A stretch of DNA of 64,000 nt from Anaerolineae bacterium (GCA_013178095.1 JABLXK010000017.1:2475-66474); one strand, 5' to 3'; positions 28,052-50,087 are shown, counted from the stretch's first letter. The notes: generated by a model from the sequence alone, not told the origin. Translations and numbers: made by a program.

Positions 28052-28175
28052 CTCTCATCTTCCAGAATTACCTTCTGCCGGAATTGGCACCAACGTGCAG
28101 CCGCATCGAATGCGAATGCCGCCAGGTTGCCGAGGTTTCACAGGGCCGATCCCTCCACCTCTCTGGATAAGAGAG
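28052..28175 (-). promoter_or_regulatory. SAM-I (S-box) riboswitch aptamer controlling metK
   Basis: The minus strand reads CTCTTATCCAGAGAGGTGGAGGGATCGGCCCTGTGAAACCTCGGCAACC...GGTGCCAATTCCGGCAGAAGG...GGAAGATGAGAG. This matches the conserved S-box core (CUCUUAUC.AGAG.GG..GAGGGA..GGCCC..UGAA.CC..GCAACC ... GGUGCCAAUUCC ... AGAUGAGAG). Confidence 0.93.
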
Positions 28176-36087: not shown

Positions 36088-37020
36088 TTAGTTTTCGGCA
36101 TTGCGGTGCATGCTGCTCAGGGCGCGCACCTGAGCAGCCGCGTGGTAGGAGGAGCGCACCAGCGGCAGGCTCTCCACCCAGCGGAAACCGATCTCCAGCC
36201 CAAAGCGTTTCAGTTCGGCGAATTCCTCCAGTGTGTAATAGCGTTCGATCGGCAGGTGCTTGCGGCTGGGCTGCAAATATTGCCCGATGGTGAGGATATC
36301 CACATTCCATTCGCGCAGCAGGCGCATGACCTCGCGCAGCTCGTCCATTGTTTCACCCAGCCCGACCATCAGGCCGGACTTGGTGAGCACTTCATTATCC
36401 AGTTCTTTCGCGCCGGTCAGCACGGCTCGCGACCATTCCAGCCGGTCGGAGGGTTGCACGCGCGCGAACAGGCGCGGCACGGTTTCCAGGTTGTGGTTGA
36501 GGATCTCGGGGTGCGCGTCCATGACGATCTTCAGCGCTTCAGGATCGCCGCGGAGATCCGGGATAAGCACCTCCACCGAACAGCCCGGCTGCAGCGCGCG
36601 GATGCGCCGAATGACGGCCGCGAAAATGCGCGCGCCGCCCAGGTTGTCGTCATCGCGGTCCACGCTGGTGATGACGGCGTGCCGGAGCCCCATGGCTTTG
36701 ACCGCCTGAGCCACGCGCTCGGGTTCTTCCGCGTCGATGGCGCCCGGCCGGCCGTGCTTGATGTCGCAAAAGCCGCAGCGGCGCGTGCACACGTCGCCCA
36801 GGATCAGGAAGGTAGCCGTGCCGCTGCCCCAGCATTCGCCCATGTTCGGGCAGCCGGCTTCTTCGCACACGGTGTGCAGTTCCTTGCTGCGCATCATGCC
36901 CTTCAACTGGTCGTAGGTTTCACCGGAGGGCGCGCGCACCTTGATCCAGTCCGGCCTGCGCCGGGGTGTGGTGTCAATTTCGGCGGGATTGACCCGCTCG
37001 CGGGTGGGTGCTTTGCTCAT
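36088..37020 (-). CDS. lipA: Lipoyl synthase
   Basis: [12 protein letters not shown] and radical-SAM CTRRCGFC clusters. C-terminal RSSYHA. Confidence 0.95.
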
Positions 37021-37069
37021 GGTTAGTTTGCTCCGGAGGGAATTATACATGCAGGCAAGGTGGAAAAGA

Positions 37070-37101
37070 ATCTGTGTTCATCCGTGTTTATCTGTGGTTA
37101 A
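37070..37101. repeat. REP-like element of the CCACAGAT family
   Basis: ATCTGTGTTCATCCGTGTTTATCTGTGGTTAA in the lipA/rsmI divergent spacer. The same family occurs at 33288-33346, 46421-46447 and 46499-46510. Confidence 0.5.
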
Positions 37102-37109
37102 ATTGGTTT

Positions 37110-37781
37110 ATGCTTTATATCGTAGCCACCCCCATCGGCAATTTGGGCGACATCAGCCTGCGCGCGCTGGAAACCCTGCGCGCGGTGGACGTGGTCGCCA
37201 GCGAAGACACGCGCAAGACCGGCATCATGCTCAAACATTTCGAGATCAGCAAACCGCAGGTCTCTTTTTACGAACAGAACGAGCACAAGCACCTGCCCAG
37301 GCTGATCGGTATGCTGAAAGAGGGCAGAGACGTGGCGCTGGTCAGCAACGCCGGCACACCCGGTGTATCCGACCCCGGCTTCACGCTGGTGCGCGCCGCG
37401 CTGGCGGAGGGCATCGCGGTCACGGCTGTGCCCGGGCCCAGCGCGCTGATCATGGCGCTGGTGCTTTCCGGCTTGCCGGTGCACGCTTTCACCTTCCGCG
37501 GTTTCCCACCGCGCAAGTCCGGCGCGCGCCGCAACTTCCTGGCAATCGACCAGGCCTCGCCGCATACACTGATCTTTTACGAAAGCCCCTACCGGCTGGT
37601 GGATTTCCTCAAGGATGCCCTGGCTGTGTATGGCGACCGGCCGGCCGCGGTGGCCAACGACCTGACCAAGAAATTCGAGGCCATCACGCGCGGCCCGCTT
37701 TCCGAGCTGATCGAGCGTTTTGGCAAGGAGGAGAAGCTGTTGGGGGAGTACACAGTGGTAATTGGGGGACGGGACGACTGA
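37110..37781 (+). CDS. rsmI: 16S rRNA (cytidine1402-2'-O)-methyltransferase RsmI
   Basis: [34 protein letters not shown], tetrapyrrole-methylase-fold signature of RsmI. Confidence 0.9.
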
Positions 37782-37899: not shown

Positions 37900-38634
37900 C
37901 TACACCGGCGAGAATTTCGTGCCGATGTCGTAATAATCCTCGTTCTCGGCCTTCTTCAGCCGATTTACTACCCAGTATGTCGCAGGCGTGAACAGCACCT
38001 CGACGCTTACCTTGAAAATGTAATTGGTCAGCACCAGGCTGGCGAAAGACACCCAGGGGAACACGCCCGCCAGCGTGGCGATCAGGATGAACACCAGTGA
38101 GTCCACGCCTTCGCCTACCAGCGTGCTGCCGATGGTGCGTGTCCACAGCCATTTGCCTTTGGTGAGGATTTTCATCACCGCCAGGATGACCGAGTTGCTG
38201 AACTCGCCCATCAGGTAGGCCAGCAGGCTGGCGGCCACCAGTCCGAAGGAAGTCATTCCGCCCAGGATGGCGTCGTAAGCGGTGTCGCCGGCGTAACCCT
38301 GCCAGGCAGCCTCGCCCGGCAGCGCGCGCACCAGCGCCAGCACCAGGGCGCTCAAGGCCAGCGCGCCGAAACCGCTCCAGATCACGCGCCGCGAGCGCTT
38401 GAAGCCGTAAACTTCGGTGAGCACGTCGCCGAAGATGTAACTGATGGGGAAGAGCAGTGTGCCGCCGTCGAAGGCCAGGCGCACCCCGAAGAGCGAGAAC
38501 CCCCAATCGATGATCTTGGCGGAGGAGGCGATGTTGCTGGTGATCAACACGGTCACGAACAGCGCCATCACCAGGTCCAGGTAACGGTAGCTGCGTTCTT
38601 TTTCCGGTTTAAGTTCCTGTATCTTTTCAGCCAT
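37900..38634 (-). CDS. yhhQ: Queuosine-precursor transporter (YhhQ/DUF165, VUT family)
   Basis: YRYLDLVMALFVTVLITSNIASSK-type start, LFPISYIFGDVLTEVYGF, polytopic. ATG 38634 preferred over the listed TTG 38655. Confidence 0.85.
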   Translation of the reverse strand: MAEKIQELKPEKERSYRYLDLVMALFVTVLITSNIASSAKIIDWGFSLFGVRLAFDGGTLLFPISYIFGDVLTEVYGFKRSRRVIWSGFGALALSALVLALVRALPGEAAWQGYAGDTAYDAILGGMTSFGLVAASLLAYLMGEFSNSVILAVMKILTKGKWLWTRTIGSTLVGEGVDSLVFILIATLAGVFPWVSFASLVLTNYIFKVSVEVLFTPATYWVVNRLKKAENEDYYDIGTKFSPV

Positions 38635-38674
38635 AGGTATAATTTCAGGTAGCAAGGATTATAAACGATACGAG

Positions 38675-39430
38675 ATGAGCACCCAGCGCTTTTTCCTCCC
38701 CGATGATTGTTTTCAGCCGAATCTCGTGACTTTTCCAGAGACGGTGCAGAACCAGATCAACCGCGTGCTGCGCCTGCGCGAGGGCGAGGAGGTGATCGCG
38801 CTGGACGGGCACGGCCTGCAATACCGCCTGCGCCTGGAGCAGAATGCCGCAGGGCTTTTCCAGGGAATAATCCTTTCAAAAGAAGAAAATCCGGCCGAGC
38901 CGGCCGTCCACTTGACCCTTTACATATCCCTGACCCAGCGCGAGAAGTTTGAACTCATCCTGCAAAAAGGCAGCGAAGTTGGGGTGGCGGCCTTTCAGCC
39001 CTTCATCTCCTCACGCTCGTTGATCCAGTGCGGCGATTCCTTTAACAAAAAACGCGAGCGCTGGGAAAGCATCCTGCGCGAAGCGGCCGAGCAGTGTGGG
39101 CGCGGGCGCATCCCGCAATTGCTGCCACCCTTGAGCCTGACTGAGGCGGTGAAAGTCGCTGCTGCCCGGCATGCCTTGAATCTGGCGGCTTGGGAGGACG
39201 AGCGGCAGGTCGGCTTGGGCAGTGCGCTGGTGGGATTCGATGGCAAAGGAACTTTGGGGTTGTTCGTCGGACCGGAAGGCGGCTTCGACGCTTCTGAAAC
39301 CGGGCGCATGCGCGCGGCGGGCATGCGCGTTTTTTCGCTGGGGCGGCGCATCCTGCGCATGGAAACGGCCGCCATGCTGGCGCCTGCGCTGGTGCTGTAT
39401 CAACTGGGGGAAATGAATCCGCGGGATTGA
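38675..39430 (+). CDS. rsmE: 16S rRNA (uracil1498-N3)-methyltransferase RsmE
   Basis: QRFFLP ... NRVLRLREGEEV N-terminal PUA-like part. C-terminal SPOUT knot LFVGPEGGF ... SLGRRILRMETAA. Confidence 0.9.
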   Translation: MSTQRFFLPDDCFQPNLVTFPETVQNQINRVLRLREGEEVIALDGHGLQYRLRLEQNAAGLFQGIILSKEENPAEPAVHLTLYISLTQREKFELILQKGSEVGVAAFQPFISSRSLIQCGDSFNKKRERWESILREAAEQCGRGRIPQLLPPLSLTEAVKVAAARHALNLAAWEDERQVGLGSALVGFDGKGTLGLFVGPEGGFDASETGRMRAAGMRVFSLGRRILRMETAAMLAPALVLYQLGEMNPRD

Positions 39431-39454
39431 CTGTGGCTTTGGCAGACTGCCGGA

Positions 39455-40519
39455 TTAAAGACTATCTGCGTTGACTTCCTGCAGGAAAATCTCCACCTGC
39501 TGCAGATACCATGCCGGTTCGCCGATGTGGATGCCATGGCTGGAATCGATGAAGGCATAGCGCAGGTTCTTGACCAAAGATTTGATCTGATCCACGTCCT
39601 GTGAATCCATGGCGCCCAGCAATCCCCAGTAGGCGTGGCGTGACCAATGCGCCTGCATCAGCAGCATGGGACACTTGACCTTTTTGAGCGCGGCCAGCGG
39701 ATCAAAATCCCGGCTGAGGCGGCCGTCGATGGTGGCTTTGGAAAAGTCCACATCGTATTCCATGAAGAATTTCACTCCCACGCGCATCTCAAACGGCAAA
39801 AAGGGCACGTCATAGGGCTGATTGGGTTTCAGGCGGCGGTTGACCGCGTAAAGCGCCATCAGGATTTTTAATACCGCGGGCGGGACCATCAGCAGCTCTT
39901 CCTGCCCTTCTTTGGGCGCGCCGGAATTGGCTAAGTAAGCCTCCAGGTTGGGCCCGGTTGGAGAGCCTAGGTTGTCGATAGCCACCTGGAACATGCGCCG
40001 CATGTACCTCTCTTCAGTGATGCGCGGATAAATGGAGGAGAACATGGGCGGATCCTCGGAAATAACCGCTCTGACCCACTCGGGGGCGTAAGCCCCCAGC
40101 CAGACCGCCAGCACGCCGCCGGAGGAAAGTCCGGAGACGATGGCCGGTTCGCCGATCACCTGTGCGATGAATTGCTTCAGGTCATCACCGCAGATATTGT
40201 AAGAATACTGTCCCGGCGTGCGCGTGGATCGGCCATGCCCGCGCAGGTCGACCGAGAAGACGTGGTATTTCCTGGCCAGTTCGGGCATGACCGACTTATA
40301 GCCCTGCCAGGATTCCATCTGCCCCGGAATTAACAGAAAAGGCAGCCCATTTTTCGGCCCCTCCACGTAATTCAGGGTAATGTTGTTGATGACGCATTGC
40401 TTTTCGCTGAATCCCTGCGGGGTGCCGGCCACGCTGATCTTGTGAGGCACGAAAAAGACCACCAGCCAGAACAGGATGAAGATGATCAGGTTGATTCCCA
40501 GGGTTGTCCAGATATTCAT
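39455..40519 (-). CDS. Alpha/beta-fold hydrolase with N-terminal membrane anchor
   Basis: N-terminal TM helix. GLSSGG nucleophile elbow (GxSxG). Late SSHGIH. Confidence 0.8.
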   Translation of the reverse strand: MNIWTTLGINLIIFILFWLVVFFVPHKISVAGTPQGFSEKQCVINNITLNYVEGPKNGLPFLLIPGQMESWQGYKSVMPELARKYHVFSVDLRGHGRSTRTPGQYSYNICGDDLKQFIAQVIGEPAIVSGLSSGGVLAVWLGAYAPEWVRAVISEDPPMFSSIYPRITEERYMRRMFQVAIDNLGSPTGPNLEAYLANSGAPKEGQEELLMVPPAVLKILMALYAVNRRLKPNQPYDVPFLPFEMRVGVKFFMEYDVDFSKATIDGRLSRDFDPLAALKKVKCPMLLMQAHWSRHAYWGLLGAMDSQDVDQIKSLVKNLRYAFIDSSHGIHIGEPAWYLQQVEIFLQEVNADSL

Positions 40520-40580
40520 TTCTATACCCTCTTGTTGACTTCATTATAAAGCCCTTTGGATAGCACCCAAGCGGGGGAAT

Positions 40581-42038
40581 TTAAAACAACCGCGTCGGCA
40601 GCAGGTTCCTCAGGCGATTTTCCAGCACCTTGGCGCGCCCCAGGTTGCGGCCGAGCGCGTCGCGCACCGCCACCACCTCACCCCGCAAATCCGGGCCGGC
40701 GGCGTAGCCGCGCAGGTCCTCGCCGCGCATCCAGGCGGCCAGGTGTTCGTCCTCCAAAATCAGGATATGACGTGTGAAGCGGTCGCCGAAGCGGCTGACG
40801 AATTCGTGCGAGGGCTGCCAGCCATCCGGCAGGGCTTTGCCCAGCGGCATGCCGCTGCTCAGCCAGGGTAATGCAGGAAAGCGCGCGTTGAGCGCCTTGC
40901 CAATCAGATAAAATTCCCCCCCGATCTCGGCGATCTGCAGGTCGTTTTCCGCCATCAATCGCTCCATTTCCAGGCCATACTGCCCGCTGATGTAATCGAC
41001 CATGCCGCGCGTTTCCACCGGCAGGGGAATCTTCATCTGCCGCGGGCGGGCGGCGTGTGGGTTGAAAGCGGAAGTTGCTGCGGGCAGGCCGGCGGTCTTG
41101 GTCAGGCGCGCGGCGAAGAAACCGGCGGTGTTGAACAGGTGCGGCCACAGGCGCGCGGCTTTGCGTACGTCCTTGGGGAAGGTTTTGCTTTCAAACACTT
41201 CCAATCCCGGCGCGGGCTGGGGCAGCCGGCTGCTGATGTCCTCGACGGCAAAACAGCCGGGGAATTGCTCCAGCAAAGCGGCCAGCACGCCCTCGTCTTC
41301 CTGCGGGGTGAGCGTGCAGGTGCTGTAAACCACCTGCCCGCCAACCTTGACTGCCCGCAAGGCGCTTTCCAGCAGGCGCGCCTGGCGCTCGGCCAGCGCT
41401 TCCACCTCGGTGAGGGTGATGCTGCGCGCCTTGTGTGATTCGCTGGCACGCATGCCCTGCATGGAGCAGGGCGCATCTAATAAAACCGCATCGAATGTCT
41501 CGGGATAGTGCGCCCCGAACCATTCGCCCGGCAGGCAGGTAACCGCCTGGTTGATGGCGCCCCAGGTGCCCAGCACAATGCGCAGCGCGGAGATGCGCCC
41601 GCGCGAAGCGTCGTTGGCCACGATAAAGCCGCGGTCTTGTATACGGTCGGCCAGATGGATGGTCTTGCCGCCGGGGGAGGCGGCCATATCCAGGACGAGA
41701 GGGTGATTGGTATGGCTGAAATCAAAAAGCTCGGCCGGCAGCATGGAAGCAGCCTCCTGGATGTAGTAATACCCCAGGCGGTGTTCGATGGTGCTGCTGG
41801 GCGCGATGCGCGCTTCCTTGATCCAGTAACCGCTGGTGCTGTAAGGTACGGGATCATAGCGCCAGCCATACAGATCAGCCCATTTGCGCATGGCAACATC
41901 CGGGTCGGACTTGAGCGCGTTGACGCGCAGCGAAAGATCCAGCGGCTGCCCGCGCAGCTCCTGCAGGCGCGCGTACAGCGCCGGGTCGGCTTGCGCCAGC
42001 CAGTCGAAGGTGTAAGCGGGCGGGATCGTTTTAGCCAT
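40581..42038 (-). CDS. rsmF: 16S rRNA m5C methyltransferase, RsmF (YebU)-like NOL1/NOP2/Sun family
   Basis: 485 aa, co-linear with E. coli RsmF as I recall it: YIQEAASMLPAELF, LDMAASPGGKT, FDAVLLDAPCS, VYSTCTL, GFFAARLTKT, plus the RsmF-type C-terminal extension ending ...LRNLLPTRLF. Confidence 0.8.
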   Translation of the reverse strand: MAKTIPPAYTFDWLAQADPALYARLQELRGQPLDLSLRVNALKSDPDVAMRKWADLYGWRYDPVPYSTSGYWIKEARIAPSSTIEHRLGYYYIQEAASMLPAELFDFSHTNHPLVLDMAASPGGKTIHLADRIQDRGFIVANDASRGRISALRIVLGTWGAINQAVTCLPGEWFGAHYPETFDAVLLDAPCSMQGMRASESHKARSITLTEVEALAERQARLLESALRAVKVGGQVVYSTCTLTPQEDEGVLAALLEQFPGCFAVEDISSRLPQPAPGLEVFESKTFPKDVRKAARLWPHLFNTAGFFAARLTKTAGLPAATSAFNPHAARPRQMKIPLPVETRGMVDYISGQYGLEMERLMAENDLQIAEIGGEFYLIGKALNARFPALPWLSSGMPLGKALPDGWQPSHEFVSRFGDRFTRHILILEDEHLAAWMRGEDLRGYAAGPDLRGEVVAVRDALGRNLGRAKVLENRLRNLLPTRLF

Positions 42039-42852
42039 GCCGTTTCATCCAGAACACCGTCTCGCCGGGGAAATCCAGTTCGCCGCGCGCTTCCCATTCC
42101 GCGGGGTTGAGGTTATCCGCCACCAACCCGCGCATGCGTTCGCGCAGGTCGCGCTTGCCGTCCAGGCTGCGCCGTGGCAGCGAAACGAACAGGTATTTCA
42201 CTTTCAGTGCGGACCACAAGGCGCGGTTGCAGCCCTTGCGGCGCTTTTCCAGGCGGTGGGCTTCTTTGAACAAGAACGCAGCGTCGGCTTCCACTTGCGG
42301 TGGCCGCACCAGAATATCGCGCACCTCGGCCAGCGCTTCTTTTCCGCTCAAACGCAAGAAATCGGTGATCAGTGCCACGCGCGGCGGATGGATATCGTAG
42401 GCGTAATAACGCGCGCCGGACGGCAAGCCAATCCAGGGCAGGGCGAAAGGGTTCAACCCGCAGGCCAAATCCAGCACGGATGCTGGCTGCCCGCAGATTG
42501 CGAAAATCTCTTTATAGAAGTCTTCCAGATAAACCAGGCGTTCGCGCGTGGAATCGTGCTGCTGCAAGAAAGCGCGGCAGGTGTCTTTTACCGCATCGGG
42601 TCCGCTGCTGAAGGCCGCTTGCAGTTCCTGCGCGGCCTGCGCGTAATCCAGGTCGCCCAGGTAGGGCGCCATCACGTTGTGCAGCTTGGCGCGCGCGCTT
42701 TTCAGCGCCTCGGCCGGTTTCTTGTAACGCGATAATTCCAGAGCCAGCAGGTCGCGCAGGGTTTCCTCGGGCAGCTCCAGGCCTTTATAGGTCTTGCCCG
42801 CGCGCAGCTGCGCCATCAACCCTTCCAGATCGCTGCTCTTTTGCGGGCTCAT
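42031..42852 (-). CDS. FmrO-family (ArmA/Rmt/Sgm-type, 16S rRNA G1405-N7 class) methyltransferase homologue, copy B
   Basis: HDSTRERLVYLEDFYKEIF, LDLACGLNPFALPW, ARYYAYDIH, FLFKEAHRLEKRRKG, LFVSLPRRSLDGKRD. ATG 42852 forms an ATGA overlap with copy A. Its stop overlaps the rsmF start by 8 nt. Confidence 0.78.
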   Translation of the reverse strand: MSPQKSSDLEGLMAQLRAGKTYKGLELPEETLRDLLALELSRYKKPAEALKSARAKLHNVMAPYLGDLDYAQAAQELQAAFSSGPDAVKDTCRAFLQQHDSTRERLVYLEDFYKEIFAICGQPASVLDLACGLNPFALPWIGLPSGARYYAYDIHPPRVALITDFLRLSGKEALAEVRDILVRPPQVEADAAFLFKEAHRLEKRRKGCNRALWSALKVKYLFVSLPRRSLDGKRDLRERMRGLVADNLNPAEWEARGELDFPGETVFWMKRHG

Positions 42853-43661
42853 TTTTCCACCAGGTAAGCCAGTTCGCTGGGAAAGTCGAAGCGCGTGACC
42901 TTCCACTTTTTATCGGCGGTCAGGGCTTCGAACTGGGCGGAGTAGGTTTGGCGCATGCCCTTGGATTTGCCGCCCAGGCTGCGGATGGGGTAGCTGGCTA
43001 AAATGTACATAGCGGGAATGTTTTCCAGCATTTCCTGCGCGCACCCTTTTTCCAATTGTTCCAGGCAGGGCAGGCTTTTCAGCAGCAGGGCCAATTGCAC
43101 AGGCTTGCCTATGGTATAGGAAAATACATCGGCGCTGGTCAGCCCGGCATGCAGGCCGCAGTGCGTCAGGAAGGCGTTGTCGAAATCGATCAGGTCGCTG
43201 AAGATGTCGCAGCCGCCGTAACGCGCGCCGCTCGCCAACGGCATCCAGGGCAGCGCCAGCGGATTCAGTCCGCAGGCCAGGTCGGCCAGCGATTCCAGCG
43301 GCGCGAGCGAAGCCAGCGTCTCCCTGAAAAAATCTTCCAGAATGGGCAGGCGTTCGGCCGTGGAGCTGTGCGCCTGCATGACTTTCAGGCAGAAAGCGCG
43401 CACGCCCTCGTCGGCGGGGTCGCCGGGCAGGTTTTCCAGCTCGGTTTTCCATTGTTTGTAACGCGGAGCCAGTTTAAAGTAAGCCGCGCCCACCTGGTGC
43501 AGCTTGGCGCTGACTTCCTTGATTGCTTCCCTGGGCTTGCGCCCCTTGGCCAGCTCGCGTTCGGCAATCTGCATGGCAAGGCCGGGCAGGATGGCGTTGT
43601 ACTTGGGCTTGGACAGCACGGCGGAAACAACTTCCTCGATCAGCGGGTTGTGTTCGTTCAT
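42849..43661 (-). CDS. FmrO-family (ArmA/Rmt/Sgm-type, 16S rRNA G1405-N7 class) methyltransferase homologue, copy A
   Basis: HSSTAERLPILEDFFRETL, ADLACGLNPLALPW, ARYGGCDIF, LLLKSLPCLEQLEKG, ILASYPIRSLGGKSKGM. ATGA overlap with the upstream TGT-like gene. Confidence 0.78.
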   Translation of the reverse strand: MNEHNPLIEEVVSAVLSKPKYNAILPGLAMQIAERELAKGRKPREAIKEVSAKLHQVGAAYFKLAPRYKQWKTELENLPGDPADEGVRAFCLKVMQAHSSTAERLPILEDFFRETLASLAPLESLADLACGLNPLALPWMPLASGARYGGCDIFSDLIDFDNAFLTHCGLHAGLTSADVFSYTIGKPVQLALLLKSLPCLEQLEKGCAQEMLENIPAMYILASYPIRSLGGKSKGMRQTYSAQFEALTADKKWKVTRFDFPSELAYLVEK

Positions 43662-44779
43662 GGCAGGTAAGGGCGCAGCCGCTCCATCAGGCGCGCCATG
43701 AAGTGCAGGTTGTGCTGCGTGGAGAGCTGCTGGTAGAGGCTGTCGTTGAGTTTGTGCAGGTGGCGCAGGTAGCCGATGGAGTAACGGCGGCAGACGGGGC
43801 AGTCACAGCCTTCTTCGATGGGTTGGCTGGATTTAATATAGCGTTCGTCATGCGCATAGACGTAGCCGAACCAGTCATCCTTCTCAAGCAGTGCGGCTTT
43901 GTCCGGCAGGTAGTTGAAGCGGTACAGGCGCCCGTGGCGGGCGTCGCGCGTTGGCATGGCGCTGTCGAACAACCCATAACCCTGCGCAGCGCAGCGCGCC
44001 ACGTAGGGCGGGTGGCCGATGCCGAGTGCGTGCAGCGGGAACTCCGCCGGGATCAATTCTCGCAGGAGGAAGACCATATCCTCCACCAGGTTGCCCTGGT
44101 TGTCCAGCGGCCAGCCGCCATAGCCATAGCCGTCGAAACCGATCTCCAGCAACTGCTCGGCGCAGTGCCGGCGCAATTCGTAGGAATTACCGCCCTGCAC
44201 CACGGCGAACAGTTTGGGCCTGCGCTCCTGCGCTAGGCGTTTTTCGTCCAGCAGGCGATCGAATTCCATGCGGCAGCGCTTGGCCCAGCGCACGGTGCGT
44301 TCCACGGAGGCTTCCTGCTGCGCCATGTCGTCGTCGACGTGCGTGCAGTCGTCCAGGCAGAACAGCAGGTCTGAGCCGAAACCGAGCTGCAGTTGCATGC
44401 ACTTTTCGGGGGTGAGCTGGTACTTGCGCTGGCCGTCCTCGGGCTTGAAAACCAGCCCGTTATCGGTGAACTGGCCGAAGCGCGGACCCTGGCGGATGAG
44501 CGAATAGGCCTGGAATCCGCCCGAATCGGTGAAGATGATGCCCTCCCAGCCGGTCATGGCGTGTAAGCCGCCCAGCGACTTGACTGTAGTGGCGCCGGGT
44601 TTTTGCATCAGGTGGAAGGTGTTCATCATCATGGCGCGGATGCCGCACTGCGCCGTTTCCTCGGCAGCCAGCCCGCGCACCTGCCCGAAAGTGGCATCCG
44701 GCAGGAATTGCGGGAATTCCAGCATTCCATGATTAAAAGCCAAGCGTAATGGATAGGTCATACGCTTGAATTGTATCAT
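43658..44779 (-). CDS. tRNA-guanine transglycosylase (TGT) family protein, divergent
   Basis: TDSGGFQ, LDDCT, FAVVQGG, GYGYGGW, ALGIGHP, LFDSAMPTRDARHG and the Zn site CDCPVCRRYSIGYLRHL. Confidence 0.8.
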   Translation of the reverse strand: MIQFKRMTYPLRLAFNHGMLEFPQFLPDATFGQVRGLAAEETAQCGIRAMMMNTFHLMQKPGATTVKSLGGLHAMTGWEGIIFTDSGGFQAYSLIRQGPRFGQFTDNGLVFKPEDGQRKYQLTPEKCMQLQLGFGSDLLFCLDDCTHVDDDMAQQEASVERTVRWAKRCRMEFDRLLDEKRLAQERRPKLFAVVQGGNSYELRRHCAEQLLEIGFDGYGYGGWPLDNQGNLVEDMVFLLRELIPAEFPLHALGIGHPPYVARCAAQGYGLFDSAMPTRDARHGRLYRFNYLPDKAALLEKDDWFGYVYAHDERYIKSSQPIEEGCDCPVCRRYSIGYLRHLHKLNDSLYQQLSTQHNLHFMARLMERLRPYLP

Positions 44780-44794
44780 CCCGCTTAAACGGGT

Positions 44795-45730
44795 TCAGGA
44801 AAGTACGCTTAGAGCTTGCAGGGTGATCCAGCGCTGGCTGCTGTCGCCCTGCGCCAGCAGCGGCCAGGTGCGCTGTTGGAAGGGGCTGCCGCCGCTCCAG
44901 GTGCCGTTGTGATTGCGCTGCTCGCGCAGCCAGCCCAGCGCGCGCCGCGCCTGTGGGGATTCCAGCGCGTTCAGTTCTTTGGCGATGCGCAGTACAAATA
45001 AAGTATCTGCGTGATAAAAGAGCGGGAAACTGGTTTTGGACCACAGTTCGTGGATCTTTTCCACGTGGGGATAATCGGCCTCCAGCAGGTCGTGATCCTC
45101 CAGCAGGAATTTCAACCCCGCGTGGATGGCTTGCCGGATGGATGAGTTTCTTTTTTCTTCGGGGAGGAGCGCCAGCCCGAACAGGTCGCGCGCTATGCCC
45201 CAGGCGCAGGGCAGGCCGTTGTTGTATTGGCAGCGGCTGAGATTTTGCAGGTCGCGCGTCACGTAGTCCAGGATGAATTCAACGCTCTCCACTTGGGCCT
45301 GGCAATAAAGCTGATAACGCAGCACGTTGCCCCACAAACAACCCCAAAAGGACTCTTTTCTCCCCTGTAAGCGGATGTCTTTTTCCATGCATTCGCGCAT
45401 GAAAGCTGCGCCCTTTTGCATAGCGGGGTGCTGCGGATCGATGCCCAGTTCGCTCAACAGCAGCATGCTCCAGTGGCTGCTGCGGTATTTGGGGGAATAA
45501 TAATGGCGGGGATTTTGCCAGTAGCCTTCCGGCTGCTGCTTTTCAAGAATGTGTAATACGGGATTAGTGCTGGCAATCAAACGCCTGGCTGCTTGCGTTT
45601 CCGCGTCCTCTTCCGGCTTTCCCAAAATGCGGGTCAGGGTCAGGTAGCGGATGGAGGGCGTGGGGCTCTCCAGCAGCCAGGCGATGGTTTTTGAATTGTC
45701 GCTGGTGTTTACTTGTTTATTTTCACCCAT
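44795..45730 (-). CDS. Hypothetical protein, possibly alpha/alpha-toroid (prenyltransferase/terpene-cyclase-like repeat) fold
   Basis: 311 aa. Repeated aromatic-rich helical hairpin pattern (EGYWQN ... SHWSMLLLSELG ... NGTWSGG). Stop lies 15 nt upstream of the TGT-like start. Confidence 0.45.
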   Translation of the reverse strand: MGENKQVNTSDNSKTIAWLLESPTPSIRYLTLTRILGKPEEDAETQAARRLIASTNPVLHILEKQQPEGYWQNPRHYYSPKYRSSHWSMLLLSELGIDPQHPAMQKGAAFMRECMEKDIRLQGRKESFWGCLWGNVLRYQLYCQAQVESVEFILDYVTRDLQNLSRCQYNNGLPCAWGIARDLFGLALLPEEKRNSSIRQAIHAGLKFLLEDHDLLEADYPHVEKIHELWSKTSFPLFYHADTLFVLRIAKELNALESPQARRALGWLREQRNHNGTWSGGSPFQQRTWPLLAQGDSSQRWITLQALSVLS

Positions 45731-45742
45731 GCAAGCATTATA

Positions 45743-46240
45743 TTATGAGCGCTTGCGGAACAGGGCGGAAAAAAGGGTGATTACGCCGATGCCGATCAGG
45801 AACAGCGGCCAGAGCGTGCCGACGCCCAAGTTGAGTCCGAAGGTACCGCCGAAGATGATGAAGCCCATTGCGCTGATAGCCATCAGCACCAGGCCGCCGC
45901 TGTCGAAGCGCGGATGTTCGCGCGAAAGCAGGCCGGCGATGATCACGCCCAGGCCGACAAAACCGGGGATGAGTGTCCAGATGTAAGCCCAGCTGGCCCA
46001 GTCGCCCGAGATGGCCTGGTAATAGAGAATGCCGCCGATGCCGCCCACGATGCAGCCGGGGATGGCCAGCCCGCCGGTGCGGGTCAGGATGGCAGCCAGC
46101 AAAAAGGCTGCGCCCACGCCGATCACGATAAAAGGCCAGTAAACGTAACCGAAGATATCCGGGTACATCTGCGTGACGAAGAAGAACCCGCCCAACAGGA
46201 TCAGCAGGATCCCCCATACAATGCCGTGTCGATTTTCCAT
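45743..46240 (-). CDS. Small polytopic membrane protein, function unknown
   Basis: Five or six Gly-rich hydrophobic segments. ATG 46240 (MENRHG) preferred. Stop lies 12 nt upstream of the next gene start. Confidence 0.6.
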   Translation of the reverse strand: MENRHGIVWGILLILLGGFFFVTQMYPDIFGYVYWPFIVIGVGAAFLLAAILTRTGGLAIPGCIVGGIGGILYYQAISGDWASWAYIWTLIPGFVGLGVIIAGLLSREHPRFDSGGLVLMAISAMGFIIFGGTFGLNLGVGTLWPLFLIGIGVITLFSALFRKRS

Positions 46241-46327
46241 GTTTCCTCCAGAAAAATGATTTCGAAATTTCATATCTACTTACGCAGGATTGGCATTTAG
46301 GTTGCTTCGAAGTTTTATTTGCCGTAG

Positions 46328-46555
46328 GTCGGGTTGGTGATCTTCCAACCCGACTAGAAGCTTTTCTGCAATTGTTTTTGCGCATCTGCCAAAGACGGCG
46401 CGGCAATCTCAAATTAATAGAACCACAGATACACTCGGATGAACACTAATAAAAAACCCTTCTGTATTTGCGAGCCGCGGAGCGGCGCGGCAATCTCAAC
46501 CACAGATAAATGAGTTATCGTAGGATGGCTTGGTGATCTTCCAACCCATCACCCT
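46328..46555. repeat. Cluster of three REP-like families in one spacer
   Basis: GTCGGGTTGG-TGATCTTC-CAACCCGAC (46328-46355), GACGGCGCGGCAATCTC (46395-46411), GAACCACAGATACACTCGGATGAACAC (46421-46447), GAGCGGCGCGGCAATCTCAACCACAGATAA (46481-46510), GGCTTGGTGATCTTCCAACCC (46528-46548). Confidence 0.6.
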
Positions 46556-46604
46556 AATCCAGGTTCTTGAGCGTATTTAACTATGGATTTCTTTGTGATT
46601 CCCG

Positions 46605-46645
46605 TAAAAAACTCCGCAGGTTGCGCCTTGTCGAAACCTGCGGAG
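46605..46645 (-). terminator. Rho-independent terminator after the flavodiiron gene
   Basis: The minus strand reads CTCCGCAGGTT ... AACCTGCGGAG followed by T6. Confidence 0.7.
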
Positions 46646-46668
46646 CCAATCAAATTGTTGTCAGGAAA

Positions 46669-47868
46669 TTATCCTTCCAGAATCAGCTTCCCAAAGCGCT
46701 TTCCCATTTCGTAGGCTTCTTTCAGGTTCTCCTCGCGGGCTTGCCCGGCGAACTCGAGCGTTTCGCCCAGCTCCCAATTCATCTTTTCAAACTGATTCTT
46801 CAGGAAACGCACCGCTCCGCCGCCCCAGCCATAGCTGCCGAAATAGATCGCCTGTTTGTTGAACGCGCGCTTGATCTCGGCCATGTACAACACCAGTTGC
46901 ATGGTGGGGAACAGCGTGCCTTCGTAGGTCGGCGCGCCGATCACCACGCCCTGGTTTTTCCAGATGGAGGGCAGGATGTAGCTGACGGGCGTGGTGGTCA
47001 CGTCATGCGCGTCCACCGGCACGCCCGCGGCCTCCAGCCCGTTTTTCACAGATGCCACCATTTTTTCGGTGTTGCCGTACATCGAGCCGTGCAGCAGGGT
47101 CACGCCTTTCTCCGCCGGGCCTTTGCCGTAGCTCGACCAGCGCATGTACAGGTCCACGATGCGCCCCGGGTCTTTGCGCCATACCAACCCGTGCGAGGGC
47201 GCGACCATGCGCAGCGGAACGCCCGCCAGCTTTTCGCCGGCGTTCAACACCGGTTTGCTGAAGGCGGCCACGATGTTTGCGTAATAGCGCAGGGATTCCC
47301 CTTCGAAGTAGGCCAGGTCGGGGTACTCCTCGTCGAAAATGCCTTTTTCAGGGATGCCGTAACCGCCGAAAGCGTCGCACGAAAAGAGCGTCTGCGAAAC
47401 GGTTTCATAGGTTACCATCGTTTCCGGCCAGTGCACCATGGGCGCGCTGACGAAACGCAGCTTATGCCTGCCCAATTCCAGTTCCTCGCCGTCGCTCACC
47501 GCGCGGATGTTTTCCTTCAAACCGAAAAAATCATCCATCATCTTGACCGCTTTGGGTGTGCCCAGGATGACCGCCTGGGGCGCCAGTTCGCGGAAAGCAC
47601 GCAGCGCGCCGGAATGGTCCGGTTCCATGTGATTGACCACCAGATAATCGATACTGGCCGGGTCTACCAGCGCCTTGAGTTCGCCCAGGTATTCCTGCTG
47701 GAAGAGCTCTTTGCACAGGTCGATCAGCACGGTTTTCTCGTCGCGGATCAGGTAGGAGTTATATGTGATGCCTTCTTTTTCAATCGGCCAGAGTCCCTCA
47801 AACAGGCGGGTCCGGCGGTCGTGAATGCTGAGGCAGTAGATGTTCTCGCTGATTGGAGTCGGTTTCAT
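46669..47868 (-). CDS. Flavodiiron protein (FprA-type; MBL-like di-iron domain plus flavodoxin domain)
   Basis: NSYLIRDEKTVLIDL, VVNHMEPDHSGAL di-iron ligands. C-terminal flavodoxin-like VTLLHGSMYGNTEKM. Confidence 0.9.
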   Translation of the reverse strand: MKPTPISENIYCLSIHDRRTRLFEGLWPIEKEGITYNSYLIRDEKTVLIDLCKELFQQEYLGELKALVDPASIDYLVVNHMEPDHSGALRAFRELAPQAVILGTPKAVKMMDDFFGLKENIRAVSDGEELELGRHKLRFVSAPMVHWPETMVTYETVSQTLFSCDAFGGYGIPEKGIFDEEYPDLAYFEGESLRYYANIVAAFSKPVLNAGEKLAGVPLRMVAPSHGLVWRKDPGRIVDLYMRWSSYGKGPAEKGVTLLHGSMYGNTEKMVASVKNGLEAAGVPVDAHDVTTTPVSYILPSIWKNQGVVIGAPTYEGTLFPTMQLVLYMAEIKRAFNKQAIYFGSYGWGGGAVRFLKNQFEKMNWELGETLEFAGQAREENLKEAYEMGKRFGKLILEG

Positions 47869-48986: not shown

Positions 48987-49139
48987 AAACGTGGGGCGGC
49001 TTTTAAAGCTGCCGCCTGAAGCGTGATGGCTTTATAAAAACAGCTTTTTGCCTTGTACTCTTGGTTTTGAGTGACACCGCTTATTGAACTTGAGATGAAT
49101 ACGCGAGGAGCGCCTGCCCTCAACGTATTGTAGGGGAGC

Positions 49140-49870
49140 GACGAAGCGATCTCATAGCCGGAAGTGCAGATGAGTGAAAAATTCCGTAAATAGGATTTCC
49201 TGTGGTGAGATTGCTTCGCCTCACTGATGCAGGGTTCGCGAGGACAATTTGGCGTTTAGGGCGAAGACACCCCGAATGTGTTCGCGAGGAACGTATGTGA
49301 CGAAGCGATCTCATGGCCGGAAGTGCAGATGAGTGAAAAATTCCGTAAATAGGATTTCCTGGCGTGAGATTGCTTCGCCTCACTGACGCAGGATTCGCGA
49401 GGACAATTTGGCGTTTAGGGCGAAGACACCCCGAATGTGTTCGCGAGGAACGTATGTGACGAAGCGATCTCATGGCCTGATGTGCAGATGAGTGAAAAAT
49501 TCCGTAAATAGGATTTCCTGGCGTGAGATTGCTTCGCCTCACTGACGCAGGATTCGCGAGGACAATTTGGCGTTTAGGGCGAAGACCCCCGAATGTGTTC
49601 GCGAGGAACGTATGTGACGAAGCGATCTCATGGCCGGAAGTGCATATGAGTGAAAAATTCCGTAAATAGGATTTCCTGGCGTGAGATTGCTTCGCCGCTT
49701 TGCGGCTCGCAAAGACTTCATTTTTATCAACGCGAGGAACGTAGTGACGATGCAATCTCATGGTCGGATGCGCAGATGAGTGAAAAATTCCGTAAATAGG
49801 ATTTCCTGGCGTGAGATTGCTTCGCCGCTTTGCGGCTCGCAAAGACATCCTTCTATTGTCATCGCGAGGA
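49140..49870. repeat. Tandem repeat array: five copies of a roughly 80-bp hairpin-forming core, with periods 159, 159, 158 and 130 bp
   Basis: Core GACGAAGCGATCTCATGGCCGGAAGTGCAGATGAGTGAAAAATTCCGTAAATAGGATTTCCTGGCGTGAGATTGCTTCGCC starts at 49140, 49299, 49458, 49616 and 49746. Linker type A occurs three times and linker type B twice. Confidence 0.9.
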
Positions 49871-49956
49871 GCGGAGCGACGTGGCGATCTCGGCTGGTAG
49901 AACGAGATATATGCCAGTGTTTGGGATGACACGTCATGAGGGAGTTAAATAAAGAA

Positions 49957-50030
49957 TGGGCGCGGAGGGACTCGAACCCACGACCTTACGGATGTGAACC
50001 GTACGCTCTAACCAGCTGAGCCACGCGCCC
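49957..50030 (-). tRNA. tRNA-Val (anticodon CAC)
   Basis: 74-nt cloverleaf folded by hand: acceptor GGGCGCG/CGCGCCC, D-arm GCTC-AGCTGGTTA-GAGC, anticodon arm TACGG-TTCACAT-CCGTA, T-arm GTGGG-TTCGAGT-CCCTC (one U50-U64 mismatch), discriminator A. CCA is not encoded. Confidence 0.88.
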
Positions 50031-50087
50031 AAATGCAAAAGAATTATAACAAAAAAAAGTCAATGCGATTGGTGAAATTCCAAAATA

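Follow-up and report, generated by a model that had tools for sequence, protein, structure and literature searches.

A gene on the minus strand (43658..44779) of a 64,000-nucleotide stretch of an Anaerolineae bacterium genome (GCA_013178095.1, JABLXK010000017.1:2475-66474; the whole stretch is hereafter called the window) encodes a guanine transglycosylase of a variant clade of the tRNA-guanine transglycosylase (TGT) family, which we term TGTv. We found that TGTv and the FmrO/Rmt methyltransferases form a conserved genetic module that crosses phyla and recurrently includes RsmI, RsmH, RsmF, and RsmE. Methyltransferases acting on 16S G1405 underlie high-level aminoglycoside resistance, including resistance carried on clinical plasmids. 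As to function, we infer with a probability of roughly 45% that TGTv would be a guanine-exchange enzyme working on the 16S decoding centre together with Rmt.

To describe the genomic context of TGTv, we surveyed 92 non-redundant loci using hidden Markov models built from the window and related loci. An FmrO gene was located within 300 nt of TGTv in 77 loci and further away, but within 6 kb, in three others; it was absent from 10, and a contig end cut the remaining two. FmrO thus accompanies TGTv in 80 of the 90 informative loci (89%), which span Anaerolineae, Caldilineae, Chloroflexia, Ktedonobacteria, Clostridia, and others. This adjacency persists at 35-45% protein identity, in several phyla, amid otherwise unrelated flanks. 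In Dictyobacter, for example, the minimal TGTv-FmrO unit stands alone between unrelated genes (PmbA/TldD and a GH2 glycosidase), while the two genes are convergent in a diderm bacterium (L088), and RlmH lies upstream of the pair in an Oscillospiraceae-type contig (L093). A second FmrO gene accompanies the first in about 40 loci, the two being separated by RsmI in L004 and in L091, a 6.3-Mb genome where the pair is found with both RsmI and the second FmrO. In the window, the stop codon of TGTv overlaps the start codon of its partner gene FmrO_A (ATGA), indicating translational coupling. Moreover, three proteins join the partners physically: a TGTv::FmrO fusion with a linker of ~20 residues and RsmI directly upstream (P0125), a TGT::FmrO fusion (P0181), and an RsmI::TGTv fusion whose stop codon is overlapped by FmrO (P0136, locus L104). 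A preliminary description, made from the window sequence alone, had coupled a divergent TGT to rRNA methyltransferases; the locus counts, the fusions, and the co-mobilisation on plasmids described below all bear this out.

The other recurrent neighbours were RsmF-like (41/92 loci), RsmI-like (31/92), RsmE (20/92), YhhQ (13/92, all Anaerolineales-type), RsmH (2/92, and also on plasmid pKP13f), and RlmH (1/92), with the RsmI and RsmH proteins exceeding the NCBI equivalog cut-offs. Of the 11 E. coli 16S methyltransferases, those that modify nucleotides 1402, 1407, and 1498 at the top of helix 44 (h44), beside G1405, are precisely RsmE, RsmF, RsmH, and RsmI; RlmH modifies H69 at its contact with h44. 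In the loci surveyed, no other 16S methyltransferase and no tRNA-modification enzyme was a recurrent neighbour. Searches by tblastn with the E. coli QueA/C/D/E/F/G proteins returned no homologue in the window or in about 100 TGTv loci (1.7 Mb), whereas E. coli tgt adjoins queA (NC_000913). Rfam searches of the window and of 15 loci detected no preQ1 riboswitch and no other family of relevance, and TGTv loci contained no dpd-type neighbours. Likewise, tblastn with E. coli Tgt revealed no second TGT elsewhere in the window and a single site in each locus of ~20 kb.

Adjacency maintained over such evolutionary depth, combined with fusion to two different 30S-acting partners, usually reflects a shared substrate and thus favours base exchange in 16S rRNA. 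TGTv would exchange a guanine at the top of h44, in the G1405/C1402 neighbourhood. It would share both the substrate particle and the stage of maturation with its methyltransferase partners, and Rmt methylation itself would not depend on it. The linkage of YhhQ in Anaerolineales suggests a 7-deazaguanine precursor, for example preQ0 or preQ1, as the probable incoming base; in these bacteria the transporter would import it. In its boldest form, the proposal makes TGTv the first RNA transglycosylase acting on rRNA, docked beside or fused to Rmt on the 30S subunit and inserting 7-deazaguanine into the top of h44, perhaps at G1405 after N7-methylation, a step that would make this base a good leaving group, and so producing a new rRNA hypermodification; we consider this full version rather unlikely. 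The preliminary description had also raised a non-tRNA or non-preQ1 reaction. The tracking of FmrO by the clade, the fusions, and the lack of adjacent queuosine genes lend some substance to this possibility.

The association of TGTv with Rmt extends to clinical plasmids. A tblastn search of PLSDB with TGTv identified 12 Enterobacterales plasmids carrying a TGT 44-46% identical to the window protein, compared with about 36% for the chromosomal-type Tgt of these Enterobacterales. Three contexts were observed: rsmH-tgt-rmtG-(methyltransferase fragment)-IS91 on pKP13f, tgt-rmtD2-IS91 on a Klebsiella pneumoniae IncC/IncP plasmid, and tgt-metallophosphoesterase-rmtB2 on a Providencia NDM plasmid. 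Each of the three plasmid-borne enzymes contains FFPDAT, GFGGWPL, PTREARH, and the insertions specific to the clade, and all are thus TGTv members. Judged from these contexts, the TGTv-Rmt pair has been mobilised onto clinical plasmids at least three times. The Kp13 genome paper records, without comment, a coding sequence for a "putative tRNA ribosyltransferase" immediately upstream of rmtG (PMC3904158). The pKP13f TGT has its closest relatives (70-86% identity) in metagenome-assembled genomes (MAGs) of Clostridia, where they are abundant and where a chromosomal RsmH-TGTv-FmrO-RsmI operon lies amid genes for an aminoacyl-tRNA synthetase, FolC, SecG, and ribosomal proteins. The pKP13f segment (L094, NZ_CP004000.1 193316-197387), which contains the 3' end of a tRNA-synthetase gene, rsmH, tgt, rmtG, and the 5' part of rsmI, is collinear with one such Clostridia contig at 73-78% nucleotide identity (in a comparison with L099/L100 and L097/L098). 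At the amino acid level, identity to the Clostridia operon reaches 80% for RsmH, 84% for TGTv, and 87% for the RsmI fragment, but only 49% for Rmt. By this collinearity, the rmtG cassette is a captured piece of that operon, and the comparison points to uncultured gut Clostridia, of a Christensenellales/Eubacteriales-like type, as the lineage from which rmtG and rmtD came.

These plasmids also bear on the suggestion that TGTv and Rmt share no function at all, TGTv being a mere neighbour that provides a promoter or translational coupling for rmt, or an idle scaffold that hitch-hiked onto plasmids. Among 5426 complete E. coli genomes, 222 carry rmtB1 (217 places on plasmids and 11 on chromosomes), and in none of them is it accompanied by the tgt and metallophosphoesterase genes found ahead of rmtB2 in Providencia. 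The rmtB1 cassette is therefore a shorter capture of the same ancestral context, and since rmtB1 confers resistance and spreads without TGTv, Rmt-mediated resistance is independent of it. IS91/ISCR elements, furthermore, take up adjacent DNA indiscriminately. Such a passive association is nevertheless very improbable given that adjacency is kept between distant homologues of several phyla with unrelated flanks, that independent fusions join TGTv to two different partners, and that all catalytic residues are strictly conserved.

We next turned to the enzyme itself. The window protein matches the Pfam TGT family (PF01702) with 297.7 bits (E 1.5e-88) and scores 295.6 bits against TIGR00449 (cut-off 47.6), placing it well within the TGT superfamily. 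Against TIGR00430, the equivalog model for bacterial Tgt, it reaches 297.6 bits, a borderline value below the 306.75 cut-off; PGAP names some clade members Tgt. The protein has 373 residues, with an alternative start possible at the ATG at 44761, contains no extra domains, and is 35-38% identical to E. coli Tgt. Every motif quoted in the preliminary description was found in the translation: FLPDAT (residues 25-30), TDSGGFQ (84-90), LDDCT (142-146), FAVVQGG (191-197), GYGYGGWPLD (217-226), ALGIGHP (251-257), LFDSAMPTRDARHG (270-283), and CDCPVC (325-330) followed by His356. The canonical forms that it gave for comparison were also correct, E. coli Tgt (NC_000913) reading FMPVGT, FDECT, GYAVGGLAVGE, LMGVGKP, and MFDCVMPTRNARNG.

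Residues were then mapped by HMMER alignment of the window protein to Zymomonas mobilis TGT, in whose crystallographic (Zm) numbering positions are given below. The catalytic residues D102 and D280 (D85 and D272 in the window protein) are retained, acting respectively as general acid/base and nucleophile in the canonical enzyme (review PMC4425180). Also retained are the pocket residues S103 (S86), Q107 (Q90), D156 (D143), C158 (C145), Q203 (Q195), and G229/G230 (G221/G222), the arginine pair R286/R289 (R278/R281), the zinc ligands C318/C320/C323/H349 (C325/C327/C330/H356), and the dimer-interface residues of bacterial Tgt. An AlphaFold2 model, based on an alignment of 22 family members, reached a mean predicted local distance difference test (pLDDT) score of 89.8 and a predicted template modelling (pTM) score of 0.89. 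Its best Foldseek match in the PDB was 1q2r, the covalent TGT-RNA complex of Z. mobilis (TM 0.84), confirming the TGT fold, a (beta/alpha)8 barrel with a zinc subdomain at the C-terminus. As judged by residue retention, the window gene thus encodes a catalytically intact TGT-fold enzyme, in agreement with the catalytic scaffold and zinc site announced in the preliminary description.

In contrast to the catalytic residues, several positions, including ones in the base pocket, differ from those of Z. mobilis TGT. The substitutions comprise V45D, G46A, Y106F, L231W, A232P, V233L, G234/E235 replaced by D226/N227, Y258H, L259A, M260L, K264H, and S287D. These changes are not a peculiarity of the window. 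The best 120 homologues share 58-97% identity with the window protein, and their 15 most frequent loop variants, which account for 108 sequences, all read GGWPL followed by D or N. In 22 diverse family members, P27-D28-A29-T30 and G221-G222-W223-P224-L225-D226 are invariant, as are L225 (Zm V233) and C145 (Zm C158), together with the catalytic and guanine-face residues. More distant relatives, down to 35-45% identity, were reached by searching 1.84 billion cluster representatives exhaustively with HMMER and tabulating their motifs. In this set, PDAT occurs together with the GG[W]P[LIV] loop, and neither was ever paired with the canonical PV(G/A)T or GGLxVGE.

Pocket positions were compared between 35 clade and 57 canonical representatives, which share the catalytic and guanine-face residues (in the clade, D85 is present in 35/35 and D272 in 32/35). 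Position 45, Val or Ile in 55/57 canonical sequences and never Asp (0/57), is Asp in 35/35 clade members. Gly234, found in 57/57 canonical sequences, is replaced by Asp or Asn in 25/35, and Glu235, also present in 57/57, becomes variable. Similarly, the canonical Leu231, Ala/Ser232, and Leu259 give way to Trp (23/35), Pro (26/35), and Ala or Gly (33/35), respectively. The clade conserves R286 and R289, keeps position 52 basic (K52 as Arg), and also carries three specific insertions. Since the pocket changes are clade-wide and functionally correlated, they do not reflect drift. By these residues, the pocket is predicted to read the 2-amino-6-oxo face of guanine or 7-deazaguanine as before, with the wall at position 7 and the floor at residue 45 rebuilt.

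A neighbour-joining tree (computed in numpy with 100 bootstraps), from which the diagnostic columns had been removed, separated TGTv from canonical Tgt. All 35 PDAT sequences, including the window protein, formed one clade, joined by two N-terminally damaged variants, and in the great majority of the bootstraps this clade reappeared either complete or lacking a single member. As placed by this phylogeny, TGTv is a distinct, ancient, and monophyletic clade of the bacterial TGT family. The altered pocket advanced in the preliminary description is therefore real, GGWPLD and V45D being clade-defining, but it is the common form across much of Chloroflexota rather than an oddity. The caveat raised there, that the pocket residues could simply be the normal variant of the phylum, was thus partly right, yet TGTv extends beyond the phylum. 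The cluster-representative search also returned unusual architectures, each of which could be a gene-model artefact: a fusion of ribosomal protein S11 to a TGT that belongs to yet another non-canonical class (GGLSIGM, HLLGxG; P0243), TGTv fused to an RNase-H-like RVT_3 domain (P0270), and another unusual TGT architecture (P0220). Five sequences (P0180, P0214, P0236, P0245, and P0267) display a third TGT-like loop class (GG--SLGK, HLLGIG, FIPVAT) that is neither canonical nor TGTv.

In a scan of one genome per GTDB species, TGTv relatives were detected in at least 563 species. The best 80 of these are nearly all Chloroflexota, comprising Anaerolineae (Pelolinea, Ornatilinea apprima, Levilinea, Leptolinea, and Bellilinea) as well as Caldilineales, Ardenticatenaceae, Roseiflexaceae, Chloroflexaceae, and Ktedonobacteria, including Dictyobacter aurantiacus. 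The window protein is 97% identical to that of a Pelolinea MAG (L006). More distant members are labelled Flexilinea flocculi, Oscillospiraceae, Christensenellales, Eubacteriales, a Niabella MAG, and an Acidobacteria MAG, although taxon labels of MAGs need caution. In the Acidobacteria-labelled MAG (L004/L005, GCA_018269055.1), the TGTv/FmrO pair lies between transposases, DDE transposases flanking a TGTv-FmrO-RsmI-FmrO string. Upstream of it lies an aminosugar-type set that includes DegT/DnrJ/EryC1 and class-III aminotransferases, GFO/IDH/MocA oxidoreductases, a radical SAM/SPASM enzyme, and a glycosyltransferase. The region may have been acquired horizontally as an island, or it may point to a link with aminoglycoside-like biosynthesis.

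The strongest competitor of rRNA exchange is that TGTv acts on tRNA, as the sole or a specialised second wobble G34 transglycosylase of its lineage, with an altered preference for the incoming 7-deazaguanine. The preliminary description had allowed for this too, in naming the lineage's housekeeping tgt as an alternative, which stays plausible. Co-transcription with rRNA methyltransferases would then be explained by the joint contribution of tRNA position 34 and nucleotides 1400-1407/1498 to wobble decoding. Much of the evidence above is compatible with this possibility, to which we give serious but lesser credence: the score just under the Tgt equivalog cut-off, the identity to E. coli Tgt, the complete set of catalytic residues, the presence of TGTv in so many species, the linked YhhQ of Anaerolineales, and the single TGT in the window and in every ~20-kb locus. 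The nearest relatives outside the clade are ordinary Patescibacteria Tgt (P0152, the best-scoring canonical representative, is of Patescibacteria), which fits vertical descent of an ancestral tgt; Patescibacteria are often placed beside Chloroflexota. In addition, R286, R289, and the basic residue at position 52, residues that contact the anticodon-loop backbone in TGT enzymes, are retained. A tRNA enzyme sits less well with the fusions of TGTv to 30S-acting enzymes, the co-occurrence with FmrO across phyla, and the loci searched, in which queuosine genes are never adjacent. It also has to accommodate the loss of Gly234-Glu235 and of the hydrophobic residue at position 45, and the occurrence of TGTv in Clostridia and in MAGs labelled Bacteroidota and Acidobacteriota, groups in which a canonical tgt is generally the rule.

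Base exchange in 16S rRNA, which we prefer, has in turn to contend with several observations. The near-threshold Tgt score, the Patescibacteria relatives, the retained anticodon-loop contacts, and the spread of rmtB1 without the preceding tgt all weigh against it. TGTs need a flipped-out G in a loop, whereas h44 is helical in the mature 30S subunit, and we know of no report of 7-deazaguanine in rRNA. Furthermore, the tRNA wobble base sits in the very site that these rRNA modifications decorate, so that co-regulation alone could explain the neighbourhood. Finally, E. coli TGT gave no rRNA labelling in earlier work (eukaryotic rRNA only; review PMC4425180).

The rebuilt wall of the pocket also raises a special case of rRNA exchange, in which m7G1405 itself would be the leaving base, swapped either for 7-deazaguanine (hypermodification) or for plain guanine, TGTv then being an eraser. 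Proline at position 232 removes a backbone NH that hydrogen-bonds guanine N7 in the Z. mobilis structures, and the wall that faces position 7 gains an invariant Trp as well as an Asp/Asn. The short linker of the TGTv::FmrO fusion and the translational coupling of TGTv to FmrO_A are in keeping with such a sequential reaction. 7-Methylguanine is a classical TGT inhibitor, and TGT pockets can thus bind it. This variant, a structural deduction from residue changes, appears improbable. A co-expressed writer and eraser would form a futile cycle, and clinical strains with tgt-rmtG or tgt-rmtD show m7G1405-type resistance, although a 7-deaza base at position 1405 would probably give the same phenotype.

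The partner encoded next to TGTv in the window, FmrO_A (42849..43661, minus strand), is a homologue of the Rmt/Sgm-type 16S rRNA (guanine1405-N7) methyltransferases. It matches Pfam FmrO with 159 bits (positions 4-254 of 255) and aligns over its full length (residues 7-270) with Sgm (3lcu, 160 bits), and also with RmtB and RmtC, but falls below the NCBIfam Rmt equivalog cut-off (NF000466, 195.2 versus 250 bits). The alignment includes the N-terminal domain that docks Rmt enzymes on the 30S subunit, and HSSTxERLP, DLACGLNPLA, the RSLGGKSKGM loop (RSLGxxSKGM), and the S-adenosylmethionine (SAM)-binding motifs are conserved. This loop carries residues critical for G1405 modification according to a study of RmtC, which also lists Chloroflexi Rmt homologues as uncharacterized (10.1101/712810). 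As a full-length Sgm relative with its target-recognition loop conserved, FmrO_A is very likely to act on the 30S subunit. Genes of this type are apparently housekeeping, and chromosomal, in Chloroflexota. The second and more divergent FmrO-family methyltransferase, FmrO_B (42031..42906, minus strand; Pfam FmrO 145 bits; NF000466 155.5 bits over profile positions 3-218 of 254), is 34% identical to FmrO_A. Its target-recognition loop is altered, RSLDGKRDLRERM replacing RSLGGKSKGM, and its target may accordingly differ from G1405.

Downstream on the same strand, FmrO_A and FmrO_B are followed by an RsmF-like 16S rRNA m5C methyltransferase of the C1407 class (40581..42038; Pfam Methyltr_RsmB-F and RsmF_N), whose best NCBIfam match is RsmF PRK11933 (261.5 bits, below the 588 cut-off), and by an alpha/beta hydrolase (39455..40519; Pfam Abhydrolase_1/6). 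The latter is a lineage-specific passenger and not part of the core, as it separates RsmF from RsmE only in the closest relatives L006 and L007, while RsmF is directly followed by RsmE in other Anaerolineales. Beyond it lie an RsmE-family 16S rRNA m3U1498 methyltransferase (38675..39430, plus strand; TIGR00046, 144.8 bits versus a cut-off of 41), a YhhQ/Vut_1 queuosine-precursor (preQ0/preQ1) transporter (37900..38655, minus strand; TIGR00697, 106.1 versus 50.95 bits; Pfam Vut_1, 158 bits), and RsmI, the 16S rRNA (cytidine1402-2'-O) methyltransferase (37008..37781, plus strand; TIGR00096 equivalog, 221.9 versus 167.9 bits). Five predicted decoding-centre methyltransferases are thus encoded within 7.8 kb. 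The profile searches thereby verified the operon partners named in the preliminary description (the FmrO-family genes, RsmF-like, RsmE, and YhhQ) and added RsmI to them.

Directly upstream of TGTv, after a gap of 15 nt, a conserved 311-residue protein without assigned function (44795..45730, minus strand) shows weak SQHop_cyclase repeat matches. It is probably co-transcribed with TGTv and is kept upstream of it in L001 and L006-L014, that is, in the Pelolinea group only. In the Pelolinea group, the co-directional string begins with a LiaF-TM-type membrane protein (45743..46273, minus strand; Pfam LiaF-TM, 28.4 bits), which is syntenic in L001, L006-L014, L026, and L062. A promoter and terminator scan of positions 39000-47000 returned sites no more numerous than in shuffled sequence and thus does not define the transcription unit. 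Elsewhere in the window, positions 49140-49881 contain ~3.5 tandem copies of a 159-bp unit (97% identity) and two more diverged 130-bp copies, which abut tRNA-Val(CAC) (49956-50031, minus strand), and the long open reading frame (ORF) at 49120-49932 is an artefact of these repeats. A SAM-I riboswitch (28052-28173, minus strand; Rfam RF00162, 87.2 bits) lies in AT-rich surroundings (GC 0.445 at 28-30 kb).

TGT paralogues have twice marked new nucleic-acid chemistry, namely, archaeosine in tRNA and 7-deazaguanines in DNA. TGTv constitutes a third, large TGT clade, which its gene neighbourhood, its fusions, and its co-mobilisation link to the enzyme responsible for pan-aminoglycoside resistance. 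Should its substrate be 16S rRNA, TGTv would be categorically new and would represent a new class of rRNA modification at the site of aminoglycoside binding and decoding fidelity. In that case, a modification gene would already be circulating with rmtG, rmtD, and rmtB2 on clinical plasmids, where it could affect the fitness cost or the resistance spectrum of these cassettes. Should it be a tRNA enzyme, it would reveal an unrecognised link between wobble-base modification and decoding-centre methylation. Under either outcome, the rsmH-TGTv-rmt-rsmI operon of gut Clostridia offers a lead on the origin of acquired Rmt genes. The question lends itself to direct experiment, since the genes carried on plasmids are already functional in E. 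coli and Klebsiella.

Among known systems, TGTv most resembles bacterial Tgt (EC 2.4.2.29; TIGR00430), with which it shares the fold, the zinc subdomain, the dimer interface, Asp102/Asp280, and the reading of the guanine face by D156, Q203, and G230. It departs from it by scoring below the equivalog cut-off, by the Val45-to-Asp and L259A replacements, and by its three clade insertions. The GGL(A/S)VGE loop of bacterial Tgt reads GGWPL(D/N)x in TGTv, with loss of the invariant Gly234-Glu235. In canonical Tgt, Glu235 controls the Leu231-Ala232 peptide switch. The contexts differ as well, tgt lying in queA-yajC-secDF in E. coli and TGTv among FmrO, RsmI, RsmF, and RsmH. Eukaryotic QTRT1/QTRT2 and queuine-salvaging bacterial TGTs belong to the same family, and a few pocket residues (158 and 233) shifted their substrate range (PMC4425180). 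Queuine-type enzymes, however, enlarge the pocket (V233G, C158V), whereas TGTv has Cys158, a larger Leu at 233, and Trp at 231, and queuine is thus unlikely to fit. A queuine-inserting, QTRT1-like pocket was rejected on residues 158 and 233 (C145 and L225).

The preliminary description had drawn parallels with ArcTGT and DpdA, which stand as analogies but not as family membership. TGTv scores 100.9 bits against the ArcTGT model (TIGR00432, cut-off 350) and lacks the C-terminal C2/PUA domains, and it scores 16.6 bits against DpdA (NF041059, cut-off 200), with no dpd genes nearby. Both nonetheless set an example of a TGT paralogue taking on a new position or a new nucleic acid, ArcTGT inserting preQ0 at tRNA G15 and DpdA placing 7-deazaguanine into DNA. 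With Sgm, Rmt, and ArmA, FmrO_A shares the SAM-binding motifs and the RSLGxxSKGM loop, but it scores below the Rmt cut-off and is chromosomal in Chloroflexota. In the literature that we searched, no study connected a TGT with FmrO/Rmt or with rRNA. The "putative tRNA ribosyltransferase" ORF upstream of rmtG, rmtD, and rmtB2 had been described as a neighbouring ORF, with no function proposed and with neither the ancient pair nor the distinct clade recognised; it belongs to the TGTv clade and is 43-46% identical to the window protein.

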